From Octopus vulgaris (Eukaryota), in contig OX597825.1 in the NCBI GenBank assembly GCA_951406725.2, forward strand, positions 46,376,001 through 46,440,000: DNA of 64,000 nucleotides, given 5' to 3'. The stretch's first letter is position 1, and every line of letters starts with the position of its first letter. The notes beneath the pieces were generated by a model. The model searched no databases and was not told the DNA's origin. It saw only the letters and a program-made list of their open reading frames with translations. The position numbers and the translations under genes are program-made. This document shows positions 10,831-59,001 of this stretch, in pieces.

Positions 10831-11136
10831 TGGTTAGGGGTGGGAGAAGGGTATCTTTTTTTCTTCACAAATGTAAATAAACCCAATCTGTTTCTTAAAC
10901 GAGGGACATATTCACAATGTACAGAATGCTTTCACCTCAATAGATAGTCATTGATTGGTTGAAATTGCCGAAATGCAAGAAATTAAAGACGAAATATGTT
11001 ACAAACTACAGAATTTTCTCAAGAAAGCCAAGAGAAAATGATGTTTTATAAATACATTCTACTAGTATACGAAGTTTTAAATTTTTTAGTTACCTAGAAA
11101 TTATGTTAAAAACTGCCGTTCAAACCGAAAAGATCC
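10831..11136. mobile_element. Partial copy of the GGATC-ended foldback/MULE-like MITE
   Basis: Closely similar to 12490-12797 and ends AAAAGATCC; a matching left end is at 8187-8275. Confidence 0.75.
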
Positions 11137-27300: not shown

Positions 27301-27752
27301 TCTGCTATGTCCGGTTTCAGATGCGTTTCTGTGAGTGCTATGCATAAGGCTTGATTGCATGCGACAAAGTTTCTCAGGAACGGGACTTTTGTCCTGTTAC
27401 TGTGTGTTAGTAGTCCTCTGATGTTCAGTAGGTGCATCGAGGTGAGATGTATGCTGTTGCCGGCGGTGTCCACCCTGGGTCCATCTGCTGTGGCAGTCTT
27501 GTGAACCGTGGGCAGTTCCATCTGCGAGCCTGAGCCTGATGGAGCCAGGTTAGCTGCTGTACAATCTTTTGTGCCATGCACAAAAAAGATTCCTGCTCAG
27601 CAGCTGCCCTTTCAACAACACGTTGGTGGTTTGTGGTACGCACCACATCTGCGTACCTCCGTTTTGGGGCAGGTGATGCGTGGTCCATCCTATTTCCTTT
27701 CGGTGGTTGGTTTCTGTGGCAGGGTCCCGGATGTGCAAAGCGGCAGCCTGCA
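24385..27752 (-). mobile_element. CR1-clade LINE copy 1, 5'-truncated within ORF1, (ATCA)n tail
   Basis: Intact ORF2, 3' stem motif GGCGGTGCCCCAGCATGGCC, flanked by (TA)n. Confidence 0.92.
24477..27581 (-). CDS. LINE ORF2: APE endonuclease plus reverse transcriptase (uninterrupted)
   Basis: LNIRGL, LTETHL, YRPP, GDFN, LDL, SDH; NYRPISLTS, YLDFAKAFDKV, GVPQGTVLGP, YADD, RYSLERRR-like C-terminus. Confidence 0.95.
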   Translation of the reverse strand: MHGTKDCTAANLAPSGSGSQMELPTVHKTATADGPRVDTAGNSIHLTSMHLLNIRGLLTHSNRTKVPFLRNFVACNQALCIALTETHLKPDIADAELHIPQYVVLRTDRKERSHGGVAMYIRGDLTPQVLLSYSNSVCDTLIVHIRQLDVVVCATYRPPDAPSHMGKFEDCLLKIEEVLTTLEQHISVLLMGDFNLPNVRWPEGLSLPGMTRCERGQARSLLNLINTLYMEQVILQPTRAGNTLDLCFTNNMDLIHNVKVTPTLLSDHNMVELTMYGPKESTDMQPTRNPQNLSSLNFNKANWKQIEKEILKQNWPECLSSPDIDMILQQFMSVMQAICYKCVPERKATVHKNKIPRERKILMRRRTKISNRLNKQIESSEKSRLKIKLLEIENCLQLSHEKERADKEAWAIDNIKTNPRAFYRYAKETATVHCRIGPLLEKDSTLTGKPMRVSEILNEQFKSVFTPPLGHFQISNPTDFFTTADIESEAATINYIDIKEDDVIKAIDEMKIDSAIGPDGFPAILLKVCKRVLARPLQFLFQSFLAAGKLPRKLKEGKICPIHKGGSRAEAKNYRPISLTSHISKVMERIVRRKLITFLEENDLLPDTQHGFRPGRSCLTQLLQHYDWVLKQLLNHSNVEVIYLDFAKAFDKVDHGMICHKLRDLGIVGKLGEWLHDFLKNRSQVVAANGVTSISTQIVSGVPQGTVLGPLLFIMALSDMPSATRRATITSYADDTKVSQAIQNPEDTKHLQYELDEIYKWAEKNSMQFNAEKFQALYYQHAKLNAIPNEYTGPGGIAIPEAQSVRDLGIHMSDDATFHVHVAKLTMKCRRLAGWILRTFRTREQETMMVLWKTLVLSHFDYCSQLWSPSSVKLITELEAIQRSYTKKIASMQNVSYWERLKRLKLYSLERRRERYAIIYIWKVLEGSVLNFGIESYANARTGRHCVVPRTPNLPSRCRTRFCDSLGFRGPQLFNILPKNLRDLHGVDTDVFKMELDLFLSGVPDEPTSRQEGQMRAAASNSLMHQIAVARKPP

Positions 27753-27782
27753 TATATTATATATATATATATATTATATTTA

Positions 27783-27817
<35 letters not shown>

Positions 27818-27821
<4 letters not shown>

Positions 27822-30800
27822 TTTGATTTTGATTTTGATTTTTCCAGTTTCAGCTAATGAGCTGTGGCCATGCTGGGGCACCGCCATTTGGTTTGCTACA
27901 CGATTTTACCTCACGGATGCTTTTTAGCAAACGCCATCTGATGCATGAGAGAGTTCGATGCAGCTGCCCTCATCTGCAGCTCCTGCCGTGAAGTTGGTTC
28001 ATCCGGGACACCTGACAGGAAGAGGTCCAGTCCTACTTTAAAGAAATCCGCATCTACACCATGCAGGTCCCTCAGGTTCTTTGGGAGGATATTGAAGAGC
28101 TGTGGGCCTCGGAAGCCCAGGCTATCACAATATCTTGTCCTACATCTTGATGGCAAATTTGGAGTCCTTGGTACTACGCAGTGGCGCCCGGTTCTGGCAT
28201 TTGTGTGACTCTCGATGCCAAAGTTTGAGACAAGTCCTTCCAGGATCTTCCAGATATATATTATGGCATATCTTTCTCACCTACGCTCCAGGGAATAGAG
28301 CTTTAATCTCTTGAGTCTTTCCCAGTAGCTCATATGCTGCACAGAGGCTATCTTCTTCGTGTAGCTTCGTTGGATCTCCTCAAGTTCTGTGATCATCTTG
28401 ACACTGGATGGTGACCATAGCTGAGAGCAATAGTCAAAGTGGCTTAGAACAAGTGTCTTCCAGAGGACCATCATGGTTTCTTGTTCTCTTGTTCTAAAGG
28501 TTCTAAGAATCCATCCAGCCAGCCATCTACATTTCATTGCCAGTTTAGCAACATGTACATGAAAGGTCGCGTCATCACTCATGTGAATACCCAAGTCACG
28601 CACTGATTGTGCCTCTGGGATTGCAATCCCTCCGGGTCCAGTGTATTCATTGGGTATTGCATTCAGTTTTGCATGCTGATAGTATAAAGCTTGAAACTTT
28701 TCAGCATTGAACTGCATGCTATTCTTTTCAGCCCACTTGTATATTTCATCCAGCTCACATTGCAGGTACTTAGTGTCCTCAGGGTTCTGTATTGCCTGTG
28801 AGAATTTTGTATCATCTGCATAACTTGTGATTGTGGCTCTCTGCGTGGCTGAGGGCATGTCTGAGAGGGCCATTATGAACAGTAGTGGTCCCAAAACAGT
28901 GCCCTGCGGAACACCGCTCACTATTTGCCTGTTAATGGAAGTGGCCCCATTGGATGTTACCACCTGACTTCTATTCTTCAGAAAGTCATGAAGCCATTCT
29001 CCCAATTTTCCAACTATGCCAAGATCACCCAGTTTGTGACATATCATTCCATGATCGACTTTGTCAAAGGCCTTTGCAAAGTCGAGATATATGACTTCCA
29101 CATTTGAGTGGTTGAGCAGTTGTTTCAGCACCCAGTCATAGTGTTGTAGGAGCTGAGTTAAGCAGCTTCTTCCTGGTCGGAAACCATGTTGGGTGTCAGG
29201 CAGCAAGTCATTTTCTTCAAGGAAGGTGATTAGTTTCCTTCTGAGTATTCGTTCCATGACCTTGCTGATGTGTGAGGTTAGGGAGATAGGTCTGTAGTTC
29301 TTGGCCTCTGCTCTGCTACCTCCTTTATGCATAGGGCTATTTTACCTTCCTTCAGTTTACTTGGAAGTTTGCCAGTTGCAAGGAAGCTCTGAAAGAGAGA
29401 CCGCAGTGGCCTTGCTAGGACCCTCTTACATACTTTTAGAAGGATTGCTGGGAATCCATCGGGGCCAGTAGCTGAGTTTGTTTCCATCTCATCTATAGCC
29501 TTTATTACATCGTCTTCCTTTATATTGATGTAATCAATCATCTGACCCCATATCTGACCCCATATCTGCAGTGGTGAAGAAGTCAGTTGGATTGGTGATT
29601 TGGAAATGCCCAAGGGGTGGGGTGAAAACACTCTTGAATTGCTCATTTAGTATTTCACTTACCCTCATTGGATTTCCTGTGAGTGTGCCATCCCTTTCAA
29701 GGAGTGGCCCTATCCTACAGTGCACCGTAGCTGTTTCTTTGGCGTACCTGTAGAAATCTCTGGGGTTAGTTTTTATGTTGTCTATAGCCCAGGCTTCTTT
29801 GTCTGCTCTTTCCTTCTCATGGGAGAGTTGCAGACAATTTTCAATTTCCAACAGTTTCATTTTCAGGCGGGACTTTTCACTGCTTTCAATTTGTTTGTTT
29901 AGGCGATTTGAGATTTTTGTGCGCCGTCTCATTAGAATTTTCCTCTCTCTGGGGATTTTGTTCTTGTGTATAGTGGCCTTTCTCTCTGGGACACATTTGT
30001 AGCATATGGCTTGCATTACAGACATGAATTGTTGAAGTTTCATGTCGATGTCCGGCGAGGAGAGACATTCAGGCCAGTTTTGTTTGAGGATCTCTTTCTC
30101 AATTTGTTTCCAGTTTGCCTTATTGAAGTTCAAGCTGGAAAGATTCTGAGAGTTTCTTGTAGGCTGCATGTCCATTGTTTCCTTTGGCCCGTACATGGTC
30201 AGCTCTACCATGTTGTGATCCGAGAGTAGTGTCGGCGTCACTTTCACATTATGGATGAGATCCATGTTATTTGTGAAGCAGAGATCCAGTGTGTTACCTG
30301 CCCTGTTTGGTTGGAGTATTACTTGCTCCATGTACAGGGTGTTGATGAGGTTCAGGAGGGACCTCGCCTGTCCCCGTTCACATCGTGTCATTCCTGGGAG
30401 AGAAAAGCCCTCGGGCCATCTGACATTGGGCAGGTTGAAGTCTCCCATAAGAAGTACACTTATGTGTTGTTCTAATGTGGTTAGAACTTCTATTTTTATA
30501 AGGCAGTCTTCAAACTTGCCCATATGGCTTGGGGCATCTGGAGGGCGATATGTAGCACACACAACTACACCAAGTTGCCTTACATGTACAATTAGTGTGT
30601 CACACACCGAGTTTGAGTATGACAAAAGGACCTGGCGTGTGAGGTCCTCGCGGATGTACATAGCAACTCCTCCATGACTCCTTTCTTTTCTGTCGGTCCG
30701 TAGTACAACATACTGTGGTATGTGTACTTCCGCATCCGCTATGTCCGGTTTCAGGTGTGTTTCCGTAAGTGCTATGCATAAGGCTTGATTGCATGCAGCA

Positions 30801-31430
30801 AAGTCTCTCAAGAACGGGACTTTTGTCCTGTTACTGTGTGTTAGTAGTCCTCTGATATTCATTAGGAGCATCGAGGTGAGGTGTATGCTGTTGCCGGTGG
30901 TGTCCACCTTGGGTCTATTTGCTGTGGTGATCTTGTGAACTGTGGGTAGTCCCATCTGTGAGCTTGAGTTTGATGGAGCCAGGTTAGCTGCTGTACAATC
31001 TTTTGTGCCATGCACAAAAAAGATTCTTGTTCAGCAGCTGCCCTTTCAACAACACGTTGGCGGTTTGTGGCACGCACCACATCTGCGTACCTCCGTTTTG
31101 GGGCAGGTGGTGCGTGGTCCATCCCTTTTCCTTTCGGTGGTTGGTTTCTGCAGCAGGCTCCCGGATGTGCAAAACGGCAGCCTGCACCTTCCTCTCCATG
31201 TCGGCAGGCACCTCTCAGGTAGAACCTACATACCCGTGTGCGCTGCTTAGGTTTGCTTCTATCCTTGGCTGTTTCGTTTTTGGGTTTTAGTTTTTCCTCC
31301 TTTTTTGGTTCTTTCATCTCCATGTCCATGGCTTTTGGTGCCGGTAGGAGCACCCGGACTTGGGTTTACCTCCCGGGCAGGTTTCTCACTGGAGTTTTCT
31401 CCCTGGGCGTCTACCAGGTGGTGGTGACCT
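27818..31430 (-). mobile_element. CR1-clade LINE copy 2 (CCCH ORF1, frameshifted ORF2), (AAAATC)n tail
   Basis: ORF fragments 29534-31015, 29278-29646, 28277-29332 and 27911-28156 are highly similar to copy 1. Confidence 0.92.
30862..31353 (-). CDS. Short LINE ORF1 with a CCCH zinc finger
   Basis: [23 protein letters not shown] and YADVVR; homologous to 40764-41429. Confidence 0.7.
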
Positions 31431-34789
<3,359 letters not shown>

Positions 34790-34790
<1 letters not shown>

Positions 34791-35645
34791 CCTGTGTACA
34801 CATACAATATGAATAGTCTCCAGGCTCTCAGAGATGCAAAGGTCACAGCAGATATGGCCTCCTGTGTACGAACACGCCTCTGTAGTAGTCTCCACTTGAT
34901 CTTGAAGGGGATGGAGTTCCTTTTGAGGTACCAGATGTGGGCGGTGAGAGTGGTTTGGTTAGATTTGTCAGGTCGCCTGAACGAGTGTGTGTGGGCGTAC
35001 CAACGAGTCTTAAAGCTGTTTGACGTCATTCCGATGTACGATTTTCTTTTATCATCGGGGCCTGATCGTACCTCGCATGTGTAGACGAGGTCCTTCTTTA
35101 GGCAGTTGTTGTTGAGGGGGCAAGTGGTTTTATCAGGGCAGTTGCAATTGCTTTCGGATGTTGGATGGGCCTCGGAAAAAATAGATTTATTAAGTTTTTT
35201 CACGTTATTGTTGGCTAGGTTCCTGGCTAGATTGGGCGTGGTGGAATAGGAAAGTTTAATGGTGTTCTTATTTAGGATTGTATAGTACTTATGTTGGGTG
35301 GGGAAGTGTTTTTGTAGGAGAGTGAAGAAAATTTTGGCTACAGGTGTAGCGACCTCACGGTTGTACCAGCTAATGTGTCTTCGCCTATTTTTCCTGGGTT
35401 GGCGTGGGGCTATGCTACTGTAGGTGATCTTATCTTTAAAGCCACTGCGGGCCAGGGCCTCGTTGTAATAGGGGGCTGCGGCGTTAAAGATATCTTCAGT
35501 AGCGGACAGGCTAGATATTCTAATTGAGACACTTTTCACTAGGTTGTCTAATATATTTTTGGAGTGGTTAGAATTAATGTCTATATATCTAAGGGATTCA
35601 TTTGGTTTATGGTACGGGTAATAAAGTGAGGTTTTTAAGTCGAGG
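34790..35645 (-). pseudogene. Penelope-like element (Naiad-type) RT thumb plus GIY-YIG endonuclease fragment
   Basis: PYHKPN...SNH thumb motif, CNC(x5)CP(x4)C linker, LVY...YIG...R...H, and a frameshifted CDLC..E C-terminus. Confidence 0.85.
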
Positions 35646-36468
35646 ATATGTATGTGTATGTGTATATATATATATATATTTGTGTATATATATGGACTAG
35701 TCTTCTGTGTGTGTGCAGATGCGTGTAGATATGAATTTGTAGGTACGTGTACGTATGCGTATATATGTGCATGTATGTATATGTATGAGTGTAGGTAGAT
35801 ATATATAGGTATGCTTTTATGTACACGTGTATGCGTGCATGTGTGCTAATATGTACTTAAGGGCGTATGGATGTGTATATATGCGTATGTATGTTTATAT
35901 GCACAAATGTCTGTATATAGGCATATGCGTCTATATATGTGGGCAGATGTTCTTGTGTGTTTATGTGTACCGAAGTACATTTATATATATGTTATTTATA
36001 TATATGTGGTTTTGCGTGTACATAGTTATGTGTACGTTTATGTGAAAGTCGGTACACTTATGTATGTATGAATATAACACGTGCGTCTGTGTATATGTAT
36101 GAGTGTGCATGTGAGTGTGTGTGCGTGTGTGAGTGTTTGTGTTCGTATCAGTGGGAGGAAAGATAGAAAGGAAGGGAAAGGGGCAATAAATGGTTTTTAA
36201 GCCAGCCAGGCAAGCTCCCTTGGGAGAACCCTACTTCTGTGGCTTGGATGGTCGAGGTCAAATACAAACAATAACAATAAAAATAAAAATGAATATATAA
36301 AAATAAAAATAAAAATAAGGGAAGAAATGTGTGTGTATGTGTGTGCATGTATATGCAAATGTTTGTGTATGTATATGTATATATGTGTGTGTGTATATAT
36401 ATATATATGTGTGTGTGTGTATGTATGTATATATATATATATATATATATATAAGTGTGTGTATGAAG

Positions 36469-37743: not shown

Positions 37744-40700
37744 CTCTTTTACTTTTACTTTTACTTGTTTCAGCCATCCGGCTGAGGCCATGCTGGGGCA
37801 CCGCCCTTGTTGCTACCCTCTCTAAGTCCAGTTTGCCGTGGCTGGCCACTGATCTAAGAGAGAGTTTGTAGCTGCTGCCCTTAGGTTACCTTCGTACCTT
37901 GCAGTGGGTTCATCTGGGATCCCGGAAAGCAGCTTGTCTAGATATTTTTTGAAAATGTCCACATCCGCATCATGTAGATCTCTTAGTTTTCTTGGCAGTT
38001 TGTTGAACAGCTGAGGGCCCCTGAACCCCAGGCTATTACAGTATCTGCTCCTTACCCTGGATGTGGAAGACGGGACCTTTGGCACCACACAGTGACGTCC
38101 TTTACGGGGATTGGAACAGCTCTCAATTCCAAAGTTTGGTGCTAGTCCCTCCAGGATTTTCCATATGTATATCACTGCATATCTCTCTCGTCTTCGTTCC
38201 AAGGAGTACAAATTGAGTTCCCTAAGCCTCTCCCAATAGTTCTTTTCTTTCATGGTGGAAATCCTCTTGGTGAAATGTCTTTGGATTGTCTCAAGCTCTG
38301 TGGTTAGTTTGACACTATGCGGTGACCACAGTTGGGAGCAGTAGTCCAGGCGGCTTAGGACAAATGTCCTCCATAGTGTCAACATGGTCTCGCAGTCTCT
38401 TGTCCGGAATGTCCTCAGGATCCAGCCAGTGAGTCGTCTGCACATTGTCGCCACCTTCGCGATGTGTGAAGAAAAAGATGCATCGTCACTCATGTCTATC
38501 CCCAGGTCCCGTATTGATTTCGATACTGGGATTTCGATCCCTCCTGGACCAGTATAGTTGTGTTGTAATGTATATGTGTTTACAGCTTGATATTGTAAGG
38601 CTTGAAATTTACCAGCATTAAATTGCATGTTGTTGTCTTCAGCCCATTTGTATATGGCATCCAGATCTTGTTGTAAAAGGTCAGCATCAGCTGGGTTTTT
38701 GATTGCCTGTGCTACCTTTGTGTCATCAGCATAGCTAGTGAGGGATGTTGTTTGTGCTACCAAGGGCATGTCAGAGAGCGCCACCAAAAACAGCAAGGGT
38801 CCCAAGACTGTGCCCTGTGGCACCCCGCTTGCTATTGGTGTCTTTCCCGAGAGGGCTCCATTGGCTGCAACCATCTGGCTTCTGTCCTTCAGGAAGTCAT
38901 GTATCCACTCACCTACTTTTCCTGTTATGCCGAGTCTGAGTAATTTGTGACATATCACTCCGTGGTCGACTTTGTCAAAGGCCTTCGCAAAGTCGAGATA
39001 TACCACATCCACCTGTGAGCGATCCAGTAGTTGTTTCAGTACCCAGTCGTAGTGTTGTAACAGCTGCGTAAGGCAGCTTCTTCCTGGGCGAAAGCCATGC
39101 TGTGTGTCAGTGAGACGGTTAGTTTCTTCGAGGAACGTGATCAGTTTTTTTCTGATGATTCGTTCCATGACCTTACTTATGTGTGACCTCAGGGAGACTG
39201 GCCTGTAGTTTTTGGCCTCTGCTCTACTCCCTCCTTTGTGGATAGGGCATATGGTGCCTTCTTTTAGCGCCCTGGGCAGTTTACCGTTAGCCAAGGAACC
39301 ACTGAAGAGCTTCTTCAGTGGTCCCGCTAGGGCATGCCTGCATGTTTTTAGGAGGACTGCTGGGAATCCATCTGGTCCAGCAGCTGAGTTTATTCACATT
39401 TCTTCTATGGCAGATATTACATCCCTCTCTGTCATGTCTATGTGGTCGATGGTTGTTGTTTGGTTTTGGAGTGTTGTGGCATCAAAGAAAACTTCTGGGT
39501 TTGTGATTTGCATGTGCCCCAGAGGGGATGTGAACACACTTTTATACTGTTCCTTTAGTATTTCACTTATCCCTTGGGGGTCGTCAGTTAGAGTGCCCTT
39601 TTTATCAAAGAGTGGGCCAATCTTGCAGTGTACCGAGGTGGTTTCTTTCGCAAATTTAAAGAAGGCTTTAGGGTTTGTTTTAATATTCTCTATGGCCCTG
39701 GCTTCTCTCTCTGCCCTCTCCTTCTCATAGGAAAGTTTGAGTGCAGTTTCCGTTTCAAAAAGTTTCAGGTGGAGTCCCTCATTGTTTCTCTGCCGTGCAT
39801 TCAGTTGCTTCGAGAGCTTAGCTCTTCGCCTCATAAGTATTTTCCTGTCTCTGGGAATAACGTTCCTATGCTCGCTGGCTTTTTTCTCCGGGACAAACTT
39901 ATGGCATATGTTCTGTATTGTTGTCATGAAATGTTGGAAATGTGTGTTGGTGTCTTGTGTGGTGATGAAGTCACTCCAGTCATGTTTTCGGATCTCTTCG
40001 TTGATCTTCTTCCAGTTTGCCTTATGGAAGTTTAGACTGGATAGGCCTGTGGTATTTTCTAATGGCTGCGTCTCAACTAACTCTCTCATACCATATATCA
40101 TTACCTCTACTAAGTTGTGATCTGAGAGAATTGTTGGTGTTACCATTATGTTGTGGATGAGCATCGGGTTGCTTGTGAAACAGAGGTCCAAGACATTCTC
40201 ACCTCTTGTTGGCCGAAGCACTGCTTGCTCCATGAAAAACTTGCGTGTGAGAGCCAACAAGGACTCTGTCTGTCTCTGTTCAAGTGATGTAATTCCAGGG
40301 AGGAGATGGCCATCTGGCCATTTGACTTTCGGAAGGTTAAAATCTCCCAGCAGTAGAATGGTGTTACCCTGGTCCAGTTTGTCCAGGACTTCTTCTATTC
40401 TTCTGAGGCTATCTTCAAACACTCCTTCATGACTAGGGGTGTCTGGTGGCTGATATGTGACACATATTACTATTTTCGGTTGTTTCATGTGTACTATCAG
40501 TGTGTCACAGACTGAGTTTGAGTGTGTCAACAGTACTATGGGTGTGACATCTTCACGGACGTACAGGGCAACCCCACCATGAGTTCTTTCCTTCCTGTCT
40601 GACCGAAAAACAGTATACTTTGGTATGTGTATTTCTGCATCTGCTATACTGCTTGACAGGTGCGTTTCAGTCAGCGCTATGCATATTGCATGGTTGCTTG

Positions 40701-41446
40701 TGCTTAAGTCCCTAAGGTGAGGAATTTTACTCATATTAGTGGGTTTCACCAGACCTCTGACATTCAGCAGAAGCACTGGTGAGATATTTGGGGTGTCAAT
40801 AAAGACTGAAGGTGTGGCACCTGGGCTGGTGTCAGCGGTGGCCACCCTGGGTCCCTTGATTGTGGTGGTCTTGAGTGCTGTTGTGAGTGCCCCTGGCTCT
40901 GAAGACGATGTATCCAGGCCAGTTGTCCCACAATTTTCTCTGCTATTTCCACAAAATTTCTTTGTTCTGCTGCCGCCGTCTGCATTTCCTCTGCAAATGT
41001 GCGCCTTCTCCTTGTTGGGGCATTACGCACTATGTCTGCATATTTCTGGGGCAGCTTGTATTTGTTCTGGTTTTGGTTTCGGTCTTGGTTTTGGTTAAGG
41101 CATTTTGGTCGAGTGGGTTTGATGCAATTTCCATAGGGCCTGGGATGAGCGAACCTGCATCCTTCCCCTGTTTCTCCATGCCAGCAGGTTCCATTCCGGA
41201 AGAATTTGCATGTTATCTGGGTTTTCTTGTCCCCAGTTCCTCTCTGTTTTTTCTTCCTCCGTTGGACGGTTGTCCACTGGTTCCTTTCTGCATAGGTATT
41301 TTCATCCGGGTGGTTATTTTCCGTTTCCCCATCGCCGCCTATCTGTTGTTTGCCCTGCTTGCCTTCTTCGACTGTGGCAGTGGGCGTGTCATTTTTTGAC
41401 ACTCTGTGGTTGGTGTTTCCTGTTTCCATCTCTCTCTCTTTGTCTT

Positions 41447-41447
<1 letters not shown>
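37744..41447 (-). mobile_element. CR1-clade LINE copy 4 (divergent family), near full length, one ORF2 frameshift near 39395, (AAAAGT)n tail
   Basis: ORF1 40764-41429 (CCCH), EN 39394-40845, RT 37822-39294 with YADD. Confidence 0.92.
40764..41429 (-). CDS. LINE ORF1 with a CCCH zinc finger
   Basis: ATG start; CKFFRNGTCWHGETGEGCRFAHP and KYADIVR. Confidence 0.7.
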   Translation of the reverse strand: METGNTNHRVSKNDTPTATVEEGKQGKQQIGGDGETENNHPDENTYAERNQWTTVQRRKKKQRGTGDKKTQITCKFFRNGTCWHGETGEGCRFAHPRPYGNCIKPTRPKCLNQNQDRNQNQNKYKLPQKYADIVRNAPTRRRRTFAEEMQTAAAEQRNFVEIAEKIVGQLAWIHRLQSQGHSQQHSRPPQSRDPGWPPLTPAQVPHLQSLLTPQISHQCFC

Positions 41448-41485
<38 letters not shown>

Positions 41486-42032: not shown

Positions 42033-45000
42033 CTACTTTGATGATGTGCAGCGTCTGCTGTGACTGAACAGTCCAATTCTAGAGTGGCAGTCCTTGGTAC
42101 AGTTGCTGCACACGAACATCGATGGGTACGTGTAGGGTGTTGCTGCAGTTGTCCTCCTCCTGTCCCGCCTGTCCAACCACAGCTGTGCTCTCCTCTCCTC
42201 AGCCATGGAAACGCCTTTCCTCACCGTCCGACGCCAGGCAGAGCGGTCAGCAGCTGTTTCCTCCCACGTGTCCACACAGATGTTGGCAGTCCTCAGGTCG
42301 CGCTTGCACACGTCCCTGTATCGTAGCTGTGGATGTCCCTTGGGTCGGGATCCCGTGGTGAGTTCGCTGTACAGGATGTCTTTAGGCATGCGACCGTCCT
42401 GCATGCGGCAGACGTGTCCGAGCCAGCCCAGTCGTCTCCGCACGAGGAGGGCATACATGCTTGGCATATTAGTCTGTTCCAGGATGACTCCGTTTGGTAC
42501 TCGGTCCTTCCAGGAGATGCCAAGGATCCGTCGAAGACACCGCATGTGGAAGCCGCTGAGGCGGCATTCCTGCCGGGTGTATGTTGTCCAGCTCTCGCTA
42601 CCGTAGAGTAGGGTGCTCAGCACGCAGGCTCGGTACACTGCGATCTTGGTGGTTATTGTGAGCATGTTGTTTTCCCACACTCTTCTGGAGAGCTTAGCCA
42701 TGGCAGCAGCAGCCTTCCCAATCCGTCTGTTCAGCTCCGGCTCGAGGGACAGGCTGCTGGAGACCGTCGATCCCAGGTAAGTGAACTCGTTCACCACCTG
42801 CAAGCTGTGGTCGCCGACACTGATGCTGGGGACCCCTCCGACGTCCTGGCCCATGATCTCTGTCTTTTTCAGGCTGATGGTAAGGCCGAACTCTTGGCAG
42901 GCATCCGCCAGGGAGCTGACCAGCCTCTGGAGACCCGGTTGGTTGTGTGATGTTAGGGCGGCATCGTCAGCAAAGAGGATCTCTCTGATCAGCACCTGAC
43001 GGACTTTGGTCTTAGCTCTGAGGCGCGCAAGATTGAACAATCCACCATCAGCCCTGGTGTGGAGGAACACTCCGTCGTCGGACGTTCTGAAGGCATAGGA
43101 CAGGACAAGGGAGAAGAAAATTCCGAAGAGCGTCGGCGCTAGAACGCAACCCTGTTTCACTCCACTCTGGATGGGGAATGACTCCGAGGGCGATCCGTCA
43201 AACTGCACTGTTCCCTGCATACCGTCGTGAAAGGAGGTGATGAGTTTCAGCAGTCTGGGAGGGCAACCTATCCTACCCAGGAGCGCAAACAGCCCCTCCC
43301 TGCTGACTGAGTCGAACGCCTTAGCCAGGTCGATGAAGGCCACGTATAGGGGCTGTCTCTGTTCTCGATTCTTTTCTTGAAGCTGCCTGAGTGAGAAGAT
43401 CATGTCAATTGTAGACCTCTCTGCCCTAAAGCCAGACTGAGACTCGGGGTACACACGCTCTGCAAGTATTTGCAACCTCTTCAGGACCACCCTGGCAAAT
43501 GCCTTGCCGACCGTGCTGAGCAGTGATATGCCCCTGTAATTATTACAGTCGCTTCTGTCCCCTTTGTTTTTATACAGTGTGATGATGTTTGCGTCATGCA
43601 TATCCTTAGGGACAGAGCCCTCCTCCCAGCACTGACAGAGCAGCTCGTGGAGATGGCCCAGAAGGGCTGGCTTCCCGCACTGGATGACTTCTGCGGGGAT
43701 GCCGTCTTGCCCTGGTGCCTTGCCCCGAGCGAGTGAGTCAATTGCTTTGCTCAGTTCTTCCTTTGTTGGAGGCAGGTCAAGCTCCTCCATGACAGGCAGA
43801 GCAGGAATGCCGGCGAGGGCAGACCTGGTGACCACATTCTCAGTGGAGTAGAGGTTCTGGTAATGCTCGACCCACCTCTCCATCTGCTTCGCTTGGTCCT
43901 TGATGACCTCGCCATCTCTGGACTTCAGTGGAGCAACCTTTCTGACAGTGGGCCCGAATGCTTTCTTCATCCCCTCATACATCCCTTTCATGTTACCACT
44001 GTCAGCACAGCACTGGATGTTCTGGCATAAGTTCTGCCAGTAGATGTTGGCGCAACGTCTGGCCGTCCTCTGGGCGTCGCTTCTGGCTGTTCTCAGAGTA
44101 GCCAGGTTCTTTTTTGATGGGTCGCACTTATAGTTGACCAGTGCTTCCCTCTTGGCAGCAATGACAGGCTCCATCTCAGGCAGGTGAGCTTCAAACCAGT
44201 CTTGATTTCTCCGCTCCCTCTTTCCTAGGGATGACATGGCTATTCTGCAAGTGGTGTCGCGAATAATCTGCCATCTCTCCTCGATGGACGTGGCTGCGTG
44301 ATCTTTAAGGGCCTCCTCCATGCGGTTGGTGAATTCCGAGCGGAGGTCGGGGTTGGTTGTCCTGGCGGTGTTGATGCGTGGGCGGCTTTTCCCTACGGGA
44401 CGGTTGATTTTCTTTGGGGCCAATCGGACCCTGCTGCACACCAAAGAGTGGTCTGTATCACAGTCAGCACCATGGTAGCTGCGTGTGAGAAGCACACTGC
44501 TGAGGTGGGCTCGCCGGGTGATGACCATGTCCAGTTGGTGCCAGTGTCCGGACCTTGGGTGCCTCCATGAGACCTGGTGATGCGGCTTAGTCATGAAGAA
44601 TGTGTTGGAAACGCAGAGTTTCCGGTAAGAGCAAAGCTCCAACAGTCTCTGGCCATTCTCATTCACCTTCCCCACGCCAAAGCGTCCAAGGCAATCTGGT
44701 CATGCCCCATGATCGGATCCCACCCTTGCGTTGAAGTCGCCCAGAAGGAAGATGGGCTCCGACCCTGGTATCTGGCTGATGGTGGCGTCGATCTCCTCAT
44801 AGAACCGGTCTTTTATTTCCTGAGGAGAGTGGAGTGTTGGGGCATAAGCACTAATTATGTTTGCCTTCCCCGTTGATGTTGCAAGGTTAAGAGTGAGGAT
44901 GCGCTCTGAGCCATTTGAAGGAGGGATCACCATGGGGAGCAAGCTGTTCCCCACGGCAAACCCCACGCCATGCTGGCGGGCCTCCTCGACGGGTCTCCCC

Positions 45001-45284
45001 TGCCAGTAGAAGGTGTAGTCCTTCTCCCGTAGCATGCCGTCTGTGGCGAGCCTGGTCTCTTGCAGCGCCGCTATGTCGATGTTCAGCCTTTTCAATTCGG
45101 TGTTGATGACTGCTGTCTTCCTACTGTCGTTCATCTGTCGTATATCGTCAATGATGCCAGGGCACATGGTCCTGACATTCCAGGTGGCCAGTCGCAAGAC
45201 TGGTGACTGGGTATTTGTTTTTCCTTTGTTTGCTGGTGCAGGGTTTTCAGTCTGCTTTTCAGATTTTGTCCTAGCTCCAATCAC
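42033..45284 (-). pseudogene. RTE EN+RT ORF interrupted only by one TGA (44700-44702)
   Basis: ATWNVRT, LQETR, YAPT, GDFNARVG; NYRGISLLS, GVKQGCVLAP, FADD; C-terminal CSNC...HSRIGLFSH; both ORF pieces are in the same frame. Confidence 0.92.
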
Positions 45285-45848
45285 CCATTGAAGCGGGCAG
45301 TCTGTGGCAGGTCAGCACCATTATTGGCCGGGGGCTGCCCAGCTTAAGGCGGGCGGTAGCTGACCAGTGGGACTTCAATGATCCCTCCCACCGTTAGAGA
45401 CGGGCCGTAGCGCCCGGGATTACGCCAATTCACCCTGGCTTATAACTCGTAACTGCCATCTCAGCTTGTTCCATCGATGGAGTAGTTTCTCCATGGCGCA
45501 AGCCTGGGCGGTAGAAACGAAGACACTGGGCTGCCCAGACACCAGAATCTCCCTCTCGGCCCCCCAGACATAATCCAAAGGAATGCAGTGCAGTACGTTT
45601 GGAGTCTGGTTGGCTGCAGGAGTTGCCGGAAAGGGGTCGAGATTCGACACCCTACCGCCTTCGGGGCTCCGCTCCGGATTTTCTGTCTGGGTTTACTCCC
45701 ATAGCCTTTCCCTCTCCCAAGAGCATCCGCAAGGCAGCGGAGCGAGGGTTTGGAGTCAGAGTTTTCCTTCTCCTAGACTGGCTGCCAACCAAGGCTAACG
45801 AGCCCAGTCTGCCCACCTGGTTATACCGCCAAGCACCCGGTCGCGCCA

Positions 45849-47712: not shown

Positions 47713-48358
47713 TCAATTGACTAGTTATTCTTGAAATAGTTTGTGGGGATGAGGTGAACTGGAAGGAAAGGGCTGTGATGTCAACAGTTGAAGAGGAAGA
47801 GGGAATGACAAAGTGAAGACCAGCATGGTCCTCTTTGACTTGGAGGCAGTTGTGGTTAATAGATGCATGTCGATGTGAGAGCAAGATAGGGCTTTAGCAG
47901 TATCTACTAGTGATAGGTGAGACAGGTAGGGCACATCTTGGATTTAACACAGCTGGACAGCTACACTAAGAGGCAGATGAACTGTATTTTGTTCCTCAGA
48001 TTACAGTTCCCTCACACTGCATAGTTCACACTGTGGTCTTTCAATTTCCATACATGTTTCTCTTTTCCTAATACTTTATGGAAATGACTTTGTAACTAAA
48101 TACACTTCCTCCATATCTTTTTCAGAGATAGAACCGCCCAACTTTTAGTTGTGGGTTTTATTATTAACTTAGTAGATTTCTTATAACATAAGAGGGATCA
48201 GCCATCTGAATGTGGCTAGGGTCAGGGCGGGGTGGTGGGGGTGTTACTGATGCATTTAGCCCCAGGCGAACATCGACGTCACCAGAAGAGCTGACACCAT
48301 CTCGGTGTCCTTGCCAGCCAGCAAAGGGAGATCAGCCTCCCCGAAGATACGGATACTA

Positions 48359-48401
48359 CACACGGACCGGTTTCGAGGTTATTGCCTCTTGTCAACGTAT
48401 G
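48359..48401 (-). ncRNA. Type I hammerhead, U3-A8 variant (minus copy)
   Basis: Reverse complement of 48599-48641. Confidence 0.75.
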
Positions 48402-48598
48402 GTAAGCACCGCTCTTCGTTGAGGGACTTCCTCTATCGGCTGGATATATATAGATTTTCACAGTAACCACAGTCACTGGCGTAGAAAATCTGTTCGAAAA
48501 CAATAATAAATCTCTGGGCGAGATATAAACTGTAACTGCTCTATAACATAAGAGGGATCAGCCATCTGAATGTGGCTAGGGTCAGGGCGGGTGCTTAC

Positions 48599-48641
48599 CA
48601 TACGTTGACAAGAGGCAATAACCTCGAAACCGGTCCGTGTG
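48599..48641 (+). ncRNA. Type I hammerhead, U3-A8 variant (plus copy)
   Basis: CATACG-TTGACAA-GAGG(CAATAA)CCTC-GAA-ACCGGT-C-CGTGTG. Confidence 0.78.
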
Positions 48642-49064
48642 TAGTATCCGTATCTTCGGGGAGGCTGATCTCCCTTTGCTGGCTGGCAAGGACACCGAGA
48701 TGGTGTCAGCTCTTCTGGTGACGTCGATGTTCGCCTGGGGCTAAATGCATCAGTAACACCCCCACCACCCTGCCCTGACCCTAGCCACATTCAGATGGCT
48801 GATCCCTCTTATGTTATAGAGCAGTTACTGTTTATATTCAGGAATTGCTGAAAAGATACAACTTTCTATGGTAATCCTTGTTGCCAGTTCCCAAACACAA
48901 CAGATATTTAATGTTTTTGAATTTGGAAACCTAGACAATAATTAAAATTATAACTGTTAAGACAAAGTTTCAAGAGTACTGTTGCTCTAAGAGAAAAATA
49001 TTATATATATCCCGTTCTTATTTTTGTTTTTAGCAGACATCCAAAAGTCATGCCAAAACTAACC

Positions 49065-53205: not shown

Positions 53206-53333
53206 TACAGTAATCCCTTGACTATTATGGGTGTTATGTTCCAAAACCTCCTGTGATAGGTGAAAATCCGCAAAGTAGAAACAATACCGTACTGTATATT
53301 TTTTTTATAATCTTTATAATTTGCAAATATCTA

Positions 53334-54670
53334 TCTCTTATTATAAAAGGCAGATTTTATCTGCCTCCCTTTGTCTCTTATAGAAATCTACAATATAGGA
53401 TTTCTTCAATTACAATTTACCTAGCATTTTTAAGAGTAGAATGCATCGGGTCGTGCCAGGTCCGGTTTTTAAAATTTCAACCCCAATTAAGCAAAATTTA
53501 GAGAAAACTCACATTGTGGTGTATAAGTCAAATGCTTTTCTTAGTGTGGGCTACAGCACACGCACACACACACACACACAAACGGAGCGAACTGTTTCAC
53601 TGACGCTATGACACTAATTTCTCCTCCTTCCTCTTTGCAAGTGTGCAACGATTAAAGTGAAAGTAATTCACTTTTTGTAGTGAGTGACTCTTTCACTCTG
53701 CATTCCCACTTCCTCTTTACACACATAGACACGCAACTATATAAATAAAATTGTAAGCTAACGTGTGTGTGTGTGTGTGTGTGTGTGCGTGTGTGTGAGT
53801 GTGTGACAGGAAAGTTTTTTAGGACGAAAATAAGATCTAAAGTTATCTCTAAGAAACAGAAAGATCGCCCAAAAGTGTATATAGATATTTAAATGTATTT
53901 ATATATTCATCTATACACACATGTATGTATAATGTGCGTGTATATATTTCCATAGAGGTAACCATTCAATCCGTACAAAGTTTTTTAGGACGAAAATATC
54001 TCTTATTATAAAAGGCAGATTTTATCTGCCTCCCTTTGGGAGTTATACAAATCTACAATATAGGATTTCTTCAATTACAATTTACCTAGCATTTTTAAGA
54101 GTACAATGCATCGCGTCATGCCAGGTCCAGTTTTTAAAATTTAAACTCCAATTAAGCAAAATTTACAGAAAACTCACATTCTGGTGTGTGTGTCAAATGC
54201 TTTTCTTAGTCTGGTTTACAGCACACGCAAACGCACACACACAGTGTGCAATGAATAAACTGAAACTAATTCACTGTGTGTTGACAGGTAGAAAATAGAA
54301 TGCGATGGCGATGGCTATGGCGATGGCGATGGCTATGGCGATGGCGATGGCGATGGCTATGGCGATGGCGATGTAATATTTGTTTCTCTCTATAACGCTC
54401 ATAAAAGCATTGATGTACATGTGTGCGTGCGTGAGTGTGTGTGTGTCATTCCTCACACACACGCATACACATACATATATGAGAGTGGCAAACACAAACG
54501 TTTCAAACAACTACATACAAACACGTGTGTGTTTGTTATTAGTAAAAAAAGGCGCCAAAACACAACTCACTTATCATTCCAACACATTTGCAAAGACACA
54601 CGGACGGTCGAATAACAATACAGAAAAGGTAAATTGGTTTTTATTTTACTCTGTATATATTTTATTATAT
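53334..54670 (+). mobile_element. Two tandem Helitron-like family B 5' segments, including (ATGGCG/T)n at 54300-54372
   Basis: A|TCTCTTATTATAAAAGGCAGATTTTATCTGCC at 53334 and 53999; the first segment is an inverted match to about 21000-21736. Confidence 0.7.
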
Positions 54671-54672
54671 AA

Positions 54673-55065
54673 CTAGCAGTATCGCCCGGCATTGCTCGGG
54701 TTTGTAAGGGAAATAATTATATAAGCATTTTTAGAGATGTGAAGTATAATAGCCATCTCAATATGGCTAACCACAAAGGGGGAGGGGTGTTACTGTAGCT
54801 TTTTACGTTCTGAGATTTAATAATAAATTTTAGAGAGTTACTTCCCTTATATATGTCAAAAATGGATTAAAAATGGGAAAAATTGATGGTAAATTTTTTT
54901 AAATCGTAGACTCATCGTAGACGCGCGCTAATACCCAGACGGTCTCGATATGAATCACGACTATAAGATACCCGGTTTTGGTTAAACTGCACCGCAAAAT
55001 GTGGGAGTAGTTAGGAATCTAAATCGTAGGAGACAGACACACAACCTCACTTTTATATATAAAGA
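54673..55065 (-). mobile_element. Complete non-autonomous Helitron of about 390 bp (family A)
   Basis: Minus strand A|TC start, 3' hairpin CCCGAGCAATGCCGGG and CTAG|T end. Confidence 0.88.
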
Positions 55066-55128
55066 TTTCCTCTATTTACATAATATTGAGGTCTCTTTCT
55101 TTCTTTTGTTATCTTACTGTTTTTACCA

Positions 55129-55165
<37 letters not shown>

Positions 55166-55237
55166 TATATATAGTTACAGAGATGTACTTGCATAGCAAG
55201 TGACTTGATCTGAGATCGTGTGCTGGAACGAAAACAG

Positions 55238-55496
55238 TTGCAGCGTTGAAGGTGTTTATAAGCCATTTAAGAAACACACAAAAACCGTTAGATTCACTTC
55301 AACATTTAAATTTAATTTGTCAAAATATTTTCATCGCTTTGAGACCGCGACCTGTTAGCACGATATTTTTGTCAGTGAACAGGTCGTGGTCTCAAAGCGA
55401 CGAAAATATTTTGGCAAATTAAATTTAAATGTTGAAGTGAATGTAACGGTTTTTGTGTGTTTCTTAAATGGCTTACAAACACCTTCCACGCTGCAA
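55238..55496. mobile_element. Inverted repeat (about 118-bp arms), Penelope-like remnant
   Basis: 55238-55356 pairs with 55378-55496; a related degenerate copy lies at about 11440-11710. Confidence 0.75.
55368..55418 (+). ncRNA. Hammerhead-like motif with a G3-C8 swap
   Basis: TTTGTCA-GTGAACA-G-GTCG(loop)CGAC-GAA-AATATT-T-TGGCAAA. Confidence 0.6.
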
Positions 55497-55514
55497 TATA
55501 TATATACACACATA

Positions 55515-55545
<31 letters not shown>

Positions 55546-55584
55546 GTGTATATGTGTATGCATGTATGTGTGTGTGTGTGCGTG

Positions 55585-55798
55585 TCTGTGCTTGTGATTG
55601 TCCTCCACCACTGCTTGACAACGAATGTTGGTTTGTTTACATCCCTGTCACCTAGTGGTTTGACAAAGGAAACAGATAGAATAAGTACAATGCTTACAAA
55701 AATAAAACGAGTTGATTCATTAAACTACAATTCTTCAAGGCATTGCCCCAGCATGGCCACAGACCAATGGCTGGAAAAAGCAGAAGAATAAAAGAATA
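55585..55798 (+). mobile_element. SINE 3' half (same family as 41503-41916)
   Basis: gcttgacaac...gatagaataagtac...ccccagcatggccacag...(aaaagaat) tail. Confidence 0.75.
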
Positions 55799-55861
55799 CA
55801 TTCTCTGCTTTGGTCTTATGTTCAAGGCATGAGAAAGCTTGAGTTTACATGAGAAGGCCTA

Positions 55862-56235
55862 ACAGACCTGGTAGAAACAGCAGCCAAATCTCCCTCAAAT
55901 CACACCTTACTGTCATGTATGTATATATATATGAGCCAATGAGGGGGACCTCTACATGGTAGCTAGACCTGGTAGAAATAGCAGCCACATTTCCCCCAAA
56001 TCACACCTTACTGTCTTATCTATGTATATATGTATGTATGAGCCTATGAGGGAGACCCCTACATGGCAGCTAGACCTGGTAGAAATAGCAGCCAAATTTC
56101 CCCCAAATCACACCTTACTGTCTTATCTATGTATATATGTATGTATGAGCCTATGAGGGAGACCCCTACATGGCAGCTAGACATGGTAGAAATAGCAGCC
56201 AAATCTCCCTCAAATCACACCTTACTGTCTTATCT
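55862..56235. repeat. Minisatellite, 107-bp period, about 3.5 copies
   Basis: agacctggtagaaatagcagccaaat...cacaccttactgtc repeated; identical ORF starts at 55956, 56063 and 56170. Confidence 0.9.
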
Positions 56236-56740
56236 TTCTGCTACTTGGATATAGGTGTTATATTCGTCGTAAAAAACTTTCCTGTCACACACTCACGCAC
56301 ACGCACACACACACACACGCACCCTCACACACACACACACGCGCACACCCACACACACCCAGTCACACACACGCACGTTAGCTTACAATTTTATTTATAT
56401 ATTTGCGTGTCTATGTGTGGAAAGAGGAAGTGGGAAGCAGAGTGAAAGAATCACTCACTACAGTAAGTCAATTACTTTCATTTTATTCGTTGCCCACTGT
56501 GTGTGTGCGTTTGCGTGTGCTGTAAACCAGACTAAGAAAAGCATTTGACACACACACCAGAATGTGAGTTTTCTGTAAATTTTGCTTAATTGGAGTTTAA
56601 ATTTTAAAAACTGGACCTGGCATGACGCGATGCATTGTACTCTTAAAAATGCAAGGTAAATTGTAATTGAAGAAATCCTATATTGTAGATTTGTATAACT
56701 CCCAAAGGGAGGCAGATAAAATCTGCCTTTTATAATAAGA
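56236..56740 (-). mobile_element. Helitron-like family B 5' segment
   Basis: Inverted match to 53999-54270 and to part of 53690-53830. Confidence 0.7.
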
Positions 56741-56846
56741 TATTATATATAGATATATGTATATATAATTGCAGTATGAAACAGTGTTTATGTATAAACA
56801 GACGACACTTATATATAGTTATTAATAAATGTATGCATCCGTTTAA

Positions 56847-57780: not shown

Positions 57781-59001
57781 TCTTTATATATAAGAGTGAA
57801 GTTGTGTGTCTGTCTCCTACGATTTAGATTCGTAACTACTCCCACATTTTGCGGTGTAGTTTAACCAAAAGCGGGTATCTTATAGTCGTGATTCATATCG
57901 AGCCCTTCTGGGTATTAGCGCGCGTCTACGATGAGTCTACGATTTTAAAAAAATTTACCATCATATTTTTCCATTTTAATGCATATTTTTCGTTATTATA
58001 TAAGGGAAGTAACTCTCTAAAAATATCTACGATGTGTCAACGATTTAAAAAAAAAAATTACCTTAATTTTTTTTCAATTTTTAATGCAGTTTTTTGCTAT
58101 TTTTTGGCTATAACTCTCTAAAAATGCTTATATAGTTATTTCCCTTACAAACCCGAGCAACGCCGAGCGTGTGTGTATATATTTCCATAGAGGTAACCAT
58201 TCACTCCATACAAAGTTTTTTAGGACGAAAATAAGATCTAAAGTTATCTCTAAGAAACAGAAAGATCGCCCAAAAGTGTATATAGATATTTAAATGTATT
58301 TATATATTCATCTATACACACTTGTATATTTACCATCATTTTTTTCCATTTTAATGCAAATTTTTTTTAATAAAGGGAAGTAACTCTCAAACTTCACACC
58401 AATATGCGTGCTCATATGCGACGTAATAACACATCAGCAGCATTTCCTCACACCCTCCTTGCACTTGGCGAAGGCAAAATACCAGGGGATGAAAATGGTA
58501 ATATTGCCATCGATTCCATTTGTACCATTGTTAAGACGCCTTCTGATCTGAGAGATGCAGTGTTCCCAGATCTACAAGCTAATTATCAGAATATGGATTG
58601 GATTGGCAAAAAGGCTATACTGGCCCCGAGGAATAAAACTGTTCACCATATTAATGATGAAATGCTAAAACTCATTCCTGGGGAAGTCTATGTATATCAG
58701 TCTATCGATACAACTCCTGACCCAGAGGACGTCATCAACTATCCAATAGAGGTACTCAATTCCTTTGAGCACCCCGGACTACCACCACACTTTCTCAAAC
58801 TTAAAGTTGGTGCCCCTATAATGCTCATCAGAAATTTGGTTCCCCCAAAACAATGCAATGGCACACGTTTGATCGTTAAGTCCTTTTCTCCCACCGTAAA
58901 CTTATATCAATATTTGCCTGAATAATCATCATAATTCAGTGCAATCATTAACAGTACTTTCAAGCAATTCAGCCCCGAGCAACGCCGGGCAATTCTGCTA
59001 G
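57781..59001 (+). mobile_element. Composite non-autonomous Helitron with a Pif1 helicase fragment (ORF 58404-58925)
   Basis: A|TC start, a truncated first terminator at about 58150-58168, then a second hairpin and CTAG|T at 59001; AILAPRN, GLPPH.LKLKVGAPIMLIRNL and CNGTRL motifs. Confidence 0.9.

Follow-up and report, generated by a model that had tools for sequence, protein, structure and literature searches.

A multi-copy 360-nt repeat carried by the window analysed here (the whole 64-kb stretch of DNA) is probably a gutted and non-autonomous Penelope-like element (PLE), equivalent to an animal non-LTR retrozyme, that is copied in trans by an intact relative. In the simplest reading, the unit is a PLE which has lost nearly all its ORF and has retained its cis signals. 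Within the 64-kb window, it was found at one insertion only, consisting of two arms joined head to head (Table 1).

Structure of the insertion

Table 1. Coordinates of the insertion, its arms and the elements of the 360-nt unit
Feature	Position	Strand	Basis
Whole insertion: two 5′-truncated arms, head to head, 3′ ends outward	48182..48837	.	
Left arm, 410 nt = 1.14 units (360-nt period + 50-nt redundancy)	48182..48591	-	
Complete 360-nt period, comprising tail, short body, TATA box, hammerhead and 3′ part; 49% GC	48182..48541	-	
Left-arm hammerhead, identical to that of the right arm; U3 at 48395, predicted cut after 48365	48352..48410	-	
TATATATA, putative pLTR promoter box	48445..48452	-	inferred
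30-codon ATG frame + stop, possible vestige of parent PLE ORF start	48473..48565	-	
PLE-type "tail", ~41 nt, predicted hairpin, recurrent contig end	48501..48541	-	contigs + fold
Terminal redundancy, 50 nt; partial upstream pLTR without hammerhead	48542..48591	-	
Inversion junction, 2-nt overlap	48590..48591	.	
Right arm, 248-nt inverted 5′-short copy, 2 mismatches to left arm	48590..48837	+	
Right-arm type I hammerhead + distal stem; core 48605-48611, predicted cut after 48635	48590..48648	+	
Right-arm outer end = first 19 nt of tail	48819..48837	+	

The period is defined by a direct repeat of 50 nt with 100% identity (48182-48231 versus 48542-48591) at a spacing of 360. A preliminary description of this DNA had recognized the 360-bp period with its terminal redundancy, but had placed the repeats at 48183 and 48543, 1 nt off the actual positions of 48182 and 48542; the near-identical inverted copy that it had described as joined head to head was confirmed, being a partial copy of the unit. 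The right arm consists of the last 229 nt of the unit followed by its first 19 nt, with mismatches at 48771 and 48829 relative to the circularly permuted unit. With sense defined by the hammerhead strand, the left arm is on the minus strand and the right arm on the plus strand, so that the 5′ ends meet and the strands diverge. The join lies within an imperfect GC-G(n)-TG microhomology, in which the left donor has a run of 4 G residues, the right donor a run of 2, and the join itself a run of 3.

The 40 nt beside the insertion ends had AT contents of 75% and 65%. No poly(A) was present at the insertion, and no target-site duplication was found, the best direct match between the flanks being 7 nt long and located 20-40 nt off the ends. 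The host is probably an octopod, Argonauta hians being the only named organism among the close matches of a PLE fragment in the window; if so, the 2 differences over 248 nt between the arms suggest, on the scale given in PMC13282606, a rough insertion age of about a million years.

Hammerhead motifs

As had been proposed, each arm was found to contain a well-formed type I hammerhead. In the right arm, helix I has 6 bp (48599-48604/48636-48641) and is followed by an internal loop and a 6-bp distal stem, helix II has 4 bp (GAGG/CCUC) closed by a 6-nt loop, and helix III is the palindromic ACCGGU next to a GUC site with the cut predicted after C48635. The core is UUGACAA with a U3-A8 pair, and GAAA is present; the motif thus shows three helices round the core, a 3-8 pair (U-A), GAAA and a UH cut site, as expected for type I. 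A hammerhead descriptor run over the whole window gave 2 matches, one per arm, whereas 100 dinucleotide-shuffled versions of the window gave a mean of 0.03 and at most 1; none of 5000 shuffles of the unit gave a match. Searching Rfam yielded no hammerhead at the gathering score, and at E<=10 there were only 4 weak matches, to unrelated families. Helix sizes of 6/4/2 bp with a palindromic helix III are canonical for animals, and a U3-A8 covariation has been described for Schistosoma PLE motifs (both PMC4209133). The latter paper was the sole match of a literature search pairing "U3-A8" with "hammerhead", and no cleavage data for a U3-A8 core were found in the literature.

The active hammerhead fold differs from the predicted minimum-energy fold of the monomer; this would agree with cleavage in a dimer, which the palindrome in helix III also suggests. 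The circular fold of the 360-nt unit was predicted at -109 kcal/mol (z -2.8; none of 100 shuffles reached this stability) and the linear fold gave z -2.97, although a stable circular fold is unspecific, as any highly paired RNA would give one. With its two hammerheads on opposite strands, this copy is unable to excise a circle, and the insertion is probably inert, with no release of monomers. A transcript reading through both arms would form a long hairpin. A 4-fold drop in contig depth at the cut site in one run (X2) was dropped from consideration, since it was absent from another (X3).

Tail, TATA box and short reading frame

Along the unit, the order is TATATATA, hammerhead and then an ATG. 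The box is located 51 nt upstream of helix I and is not invariant, family variants occurring at 48451 and 48452. The tail was predicted to form a hairpin (z -2.26), with 4 of 200 shuffles being as stable.

The ATG opens a frame (48565 to 48476, minus strand) that spans the period junction and meets a stop at codon 31, the ATG leaving 8 codons up to the 3′ end and 22 up to the end of the tail. Neither an ORF for RT plus GIY-YIG in the unit nor a Pfam match for three of its frames was found, and the longest ATG frames have 30 codons in sense and 70 codons in antisense. The view that there is no credible ORF requires a qualification, in that the 30-codon frame may be a vestigial PLE ORF start. 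Sister variants were gap-free over this frame, but one sister group has GTG in place of the ATG. The 30-aa peptide had no credible protein homologue (one search was empty, and the best score in another was 0.76), and a repeat protein (E 2e-4), the sole match of one peptide search, was judged spurious. When the peptide was compared with the N-termini of 43 long PLE proteins, the best score was equalled by 40% of the shuffles. The interpretation as a vestige of an ORF start is thus only partly supported, the layout fitting that of known PLEs. Conservative-looking codon changes past the tail in one loose contig end (X12) were given little weight, as they may reflect a local tail duplication. Identity as a tRNA SINE was rejected, since no tRNA gene lies nearby, and a bacterial promoter scan is irrelevant to this host.

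A multi-copy family in public contigs

Part of the unit was present in 20 of the 24 public runs listed, under five organism codes. The contigs of four runs were compared with positions 48000-48541 at 85% likeness; X2 and X3 were guessed to be DNA runs and X7 and X12 RNA runs, none of the runs being listed as RNA. The comparison revealed that the unit is multi-copy, with 1146 contigs in X2 and 560 in X3, all of them on the unit save the flank contig; 828 of the 1146 X2 contigs were less than 99% alike. The left junction between flank and element was spanned by one contig in both DNA runs, which represent organisms A and B, with 0 and 2 differences over 212 nt and depths of 62 (X2) and 27.7 (X3). 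The left junction is real and common to organisms A and B.

The short body was bridged from tail to TATA at depths of 3066 (X2) and 921 and 706 (X3), which are 49, 33 and 25 times the single-copy (flank) depth, by contigs with 6-9 differences from the window; two RNA-like contigs extend over 287 and 299 nt of the unit. Since several distinct variants bridge it at high depth, the short body is a feature of a diversified family, not a deletion private to this copy. Restriction of the unit to the ends of ORF-bearing PLEs, which the preliminary description had named as evidence against itself, was not observed: contigs joining tail, TATA and hammerhead stand at 25-49 times the flank depth. These data leave very little room for an internal deletion that arose once in an abundant coding PLE, stayed rare and was never amplified; such cases are known in rotifers (PMC3846280), but several high-depth bridging variants occurred in both DNA runs, and even in the lowest body bins the depth sums to 28,240 (X2) and 8,870 (X3), compared with 62 and 28 in the flank, by which this explanation is largely refuted.

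Near the sense 3′ end, the summed depth was 24-43 times that of the lowest body bin, and over 48494-48531 it rose 6-12 times again; with the proviso that summed contig depth is not copy number, the profile is loosely compatible with 5′ truncation plus a tail. Among the best 24 of 140 rows of loose ends, contigs ending before 48501 were found in all four runs (15, 13, 1 and 6 contigs), and the flanks at these ends were mixed and AT-rich, with an agreement of 0.56-0.57 in the three multi-contig rows. Position 48501 marks another terminus, located about 41 nt past the 3′ end. Three runs have the last three consensus letters in common, and the end may therefore lie a few bases further. One X7 contig left the unit at 48182 into a different flank, representing a tail-less end.

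Loose ends behind 48539 (17, 14, 2 and 6 contigs; agreement 0.79-0.93; same best 24 of 140 rows) and the sole go-back joint (X12, period 360) were found by eye to be gap-free homologues of the 3′ end. They represent diverged sister families with a common tail, to which some of the 48501 ends may also belong. It was also noticed that one sister-family contig (X12 record 2; 445 nt, depth 135) keeps the 3′-end/tail junction and then continues for 317 nt unlike the unit; this extension is a candidate for the 5′ part of an autonomous partner or of another mini-family. Both arms of the insertion carry the minority alleles T48222 (8% of the depth in X2, 16% in X3) and A48320 (7% and 18%), and because they differ at only 2 of 248 positions amid so diverse a family, they probably stem from one template. 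DNA pattern scans of metagenome contigs and viral contigs were empty.

The contigs in X7 and X12, whose library type is unrecorded, covered the unit and not the flank. A go-back joint for this 360-nt family was found in 0 of the 4 runs, contigs being an unreliable indicator of circles. With X7 record 24 continuing for 495 nt of other sequence beyond the 3′ end, and X12 record 5 extending past the start of the unit by 659 nt, the RNA-like contigs have a linear appearance. In the longest contig of each RNA-like run, common changes at 48408, 48434 and 48435, rare or absent in the DNA runs, suggest one particular expressed copy. In the deepest of the long X7 contigs, C3 faces A8, and such a mismatch should impair the hammerhead core. 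On the plus strand, A>G changes were seen in these longest contigs at 48408 and 48435 (X7 and X12) and at 48395 (X7), reflecting either the expression of one rare copy or A-to-I editing of antisense RNA.

Origin of the insertion

PLE insertions are characterized by a partial tandem, an adjacent inverted 5′-truncated copy and an optional tail of 30-40 bp at one end (PMC8557442). A partial tandem and an inverted 5′-truncated copy are both present here, and the 48501 ends provide a tail of about 41 nt that is common to the sister families, whereas the right arm stops 19 nt into the tail and not at 41, which speaks against the PLE reading. The preliminary description had treated a short PLE pLTR as a separate alternative to a retrozyme; however, the unit appears to consist of a pLTR, a tail and a short body remnant, so that the two readings merge.

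If the unit is moved by a PLE, a master copy in partial tandem would be transcribed from the TATA box, and the PLE protein (RT-endonuclease of an intact relative) would bind the 3′-end/tail hairpin, cut both strands of AT-rich DNA and prime one cDNA per cut end. The left cDNA, of 410 nt, would be primed at the tail-less site, and the right cDNA, of 248 nt, would begin within the tail, after which the two would join by microhomology at 48590-48591. Since the left arm crosses one 3′-end/tail junction and would have begun at a second, its template would have been longer than one unit, either a tandem or a circle. For comparison, purified PAc protein cleaves AT-rich DNA on both strands, extends each of them and reverse transcribes from two internal sites delimiting the tail, with uncut RNA being preferred (PMC11167929); self-priming on an antisense template is an alternative route to head-to-head joins (PMC3846280). 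No autonomous partner PLE was found in the window or in the contigs compared, the loose ends read being the best 24 of 140 rows; ends leading into an ORF could occur in the other 116.

In a tandem master RNA, two same-sense hammerheads would lie 360 nt apart, equivalent to a retrozyme dimer, and could release a monomer by dimeric cleavage. A retrozyme cycle, in which tandem RNA cleaves itself and a ligated 360-nt circle serves as template for the arms, is thus a refinement compatible with the gutted PLE, which we regard as possible and somewhat doubtful. The unit has a suitable size (mussel retrozymes of 350-390 nt form circles; PMC7229834), GC content (49%), canonical-type helices and a stable circular fold, its template exceeded one unit, and both arms read through the predicted cut site; the latter fits uncut and re-ligated RNA equally, and uncut tandem RNA, which is the substrate of PAc (PMC11167929), accounts for the arms just as well. 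A circle is further opposed by the lack of a go-back joint for the 360-nt family in the contigs, by RNA-like contigs running into other sequence, by the lack of U3-A8 cleavage data in the literature found, and by the observation that 8 of 9 Xenopus retrozyme dimers were uncleaved in vitro (10.64898/2026.07.22.740005). The fuller proposal that the family is a circle-forming retrozyme with a working U3-A8 hammerhead and a full Penelope signature, whose tail hairpin is the cis signal for PLE reverse transcription, is held a shade more tentatively still.

It is unlikely that the unit merely belongs to the terminal repeat of a PLE with an ORF, the end of which contains tandem 360-nt units, and that the insertion is a truncated end of this PLE. 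Truncated PLE ends are common (10.64898/2026.07.22.740005; PMC8557442), depth lies mostly at the sense 3′ end, X12 record 2 extends past the tail into other sequence, and the 116 rows beyond the best 24 could lead into an ORF. Nevertheless, the repeat returns to its own beginning after 360 nt and has its stop at codon 31, the searches revealed no coding signal, and no multi-contig loose end among the best 24 of 140 rows leaves the body at 48447-48494.

An inversion of other origin, whether by twin priming of a LINE, by recombination of two copies or through an error of assembly, is quite improbable. The window is rich in LINEs, and contig support is confined to the left junction, the inversion and right junctions not being observed in the comparison with 48000-48541. 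On the other hand, both sense 3′ ends point outward, poly(A) and duplication are absent, the asymmetric arms have 2 mismatches and share minority alleles, and the left junction occurs in 2 of 2 DNA runs.

Other elements in the window

Remains of further mobile elements were noted in the window: 1) a PLE fragment (34778-35656, minus strand) with the end of an RT, a cysteine-rich linker, a GIY-YIG-like part and an apparent frameshift near 34870, which is buried in TA/CA microsatellites and has relatives including an Argonauta hians protein; 2) a LINE cluster (24477-33685 and 37822-41471, minus strand) of several related copies with endonuclease and RT, one open frame of 1039 aa, an upstream CCCH zinc-finger frame and interleaved long (TA)n tracts; 3) a GC-rich LINE (42033-45311, minus strand), RTE-like by appearance, whose endonuclease-RT frame is near-intact with a single internal stop, and at which Rfam detected no ribozyme; 4) an LTR-retrotransposon pol fragment (9433-10833, minus strand; RT, RNase H and integrase zinc finger); 5) a Pif1-type helicase fragment (58374-58925, plus strand), possibly Helitron-derived; and 6) nested inverted and direct repeats of 246-278 nt (53332-56743), up to 97% alike and MITE-like, together with a hairpin of 119 nt whose spacer is 21 nt long (55238-55496) and a tandem repeat of 107 nt (55864-56245). 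A SINE in the window is, we presume, octopus-like.

The PLE fragment demonstrates that PLEs occur in this genome. It was considered as a partner of the unit, but no link emerged, as their DNA similarity amounts to low-complexity matches of 9-25 nt and the N-termini of its 43 long relatives are unlike the 30-aa peptide. The descriptor found no hammerhead near it.

Significance

Mobilization of retrozymes by PLEs has already been proposed on the basis of shared hammerheads, co-occurrence and phylogeny (10.64898/2026.07.22.740005), in a paper that terms its own evidence on the retrozyme life cycle limited. The kind of element is known and the gain is incremental. A report of a cephalopod retrozyme, or of tail or inversion marks on any retrozyme, was not found in a search covering mainly non-subscription papers and part of the supplements; the accessible main text of 10.64898/2026.07.22.740005 contains none of the words "tail", "mollusc" and "cephalopod", and the accessible text of the octopus repeat annotation (PMC13282606) never mentions ribozymes. 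Two motifs of the unit, in both orientations, were absent from the readable supplement of PMC8557442, as was one motif from that of PMC13282606.

A retrozyme-sized family with a PLE tail and a head-to-head form points to retrotransposition in trans and not merely to local tandem expansion. In addition, it names a candidate 41-nt recognition hairpin that is testable in the existing in vitro PLE assay, and provides a natural, canonical-shaped U3-A8 hammerhead for assay. Should the circle with a Penelope signature be true, the insertion would be direct anatomical evidence for the movement of animal retrozymes and for the birth of one by internal deletion of a PLE, probably in a cephalopod.

Comparison with known systems

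Animal non-LTR retrozymes, as described in PMC7229834 and 10.64898/2026.07.22.740005, are non-coding, multi-copy repeats of 150-450 nt with GC <50%, a type I hammerhead, a short palindromic helix III, no LTR, PBS or PPT, and kinship to PLE terminal repeats. The unit resembles them in all these respects, its 360 nt and 49% GC being within their range. In contrast, the present copy is dispersed and inverted rather than in a tandem array, has a U3-A8 core, and bears a PLE tail as well as what may be the vestige of an ORF start; according to a 2020 review, by contrast, animal retrozyme repeats lack a motif pointing to the mobilizer (PMC7761336). At least 2 consecutive hammerhead units are typical of retrozymes, and two on the same strand define an "active retrozyme" (10.64898/2026.07.22.740005); the insertion has 1.14 units on one strand. 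Hence the retrozyme assignment of the preliminary description holds for a non-coding, retrozyme-sized, hammerhead-bearing and multi-copy unit, but not for an active retrozyme, no two same-strand hammerheads being present here.

Among hammerheads, those of Cercyon-type PLEs in Schistosoma share the U3-A8 covariation of the unit (PMC4209133). The same paper places them among the minimal hammerheads, for which it mentions dual motifs 100-700 bp apart on opposite strands; minimal hammerheads have a long helix II, a short helix I and an extra base before helix II, unlike the canonical sizes of the unit. Chlamys MRC1 (PMC8557442) is, as the unit probably is too, a non-autonomous PLE derivative forming pLTRs, although the Chlamys elements belong to an algal clade and mostly lack hammerheads.

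Further close parallels are Adineta Pen2a (PMC3846280) and Anolis PAc/Poseidon (PMC11167929), which have a TATA box, hammerhead and ORF start in the pLTR, as well as a one-end tail, a head-to-head inverted 5′-short copy and AT-rich flanks, as seen here, where the ORF start is a possible vestige. The unit differs from them in lacking the RT-endonuclease ORF, in its period of 360 nt, and in a tail of about 41 nt versus 31 (Pen2a) or 30-40. Target-site duplications accompany some Adineta copies and are absent from others, as from this insertion. In Pen2a, the pLTR contains TATATATA and includes the ORF as far as codon 12, or codon 22 with the tail, and copies are joined mostly head to head (PMC3846280); the corresponding numbers of codons in the unit are 8 and 22.
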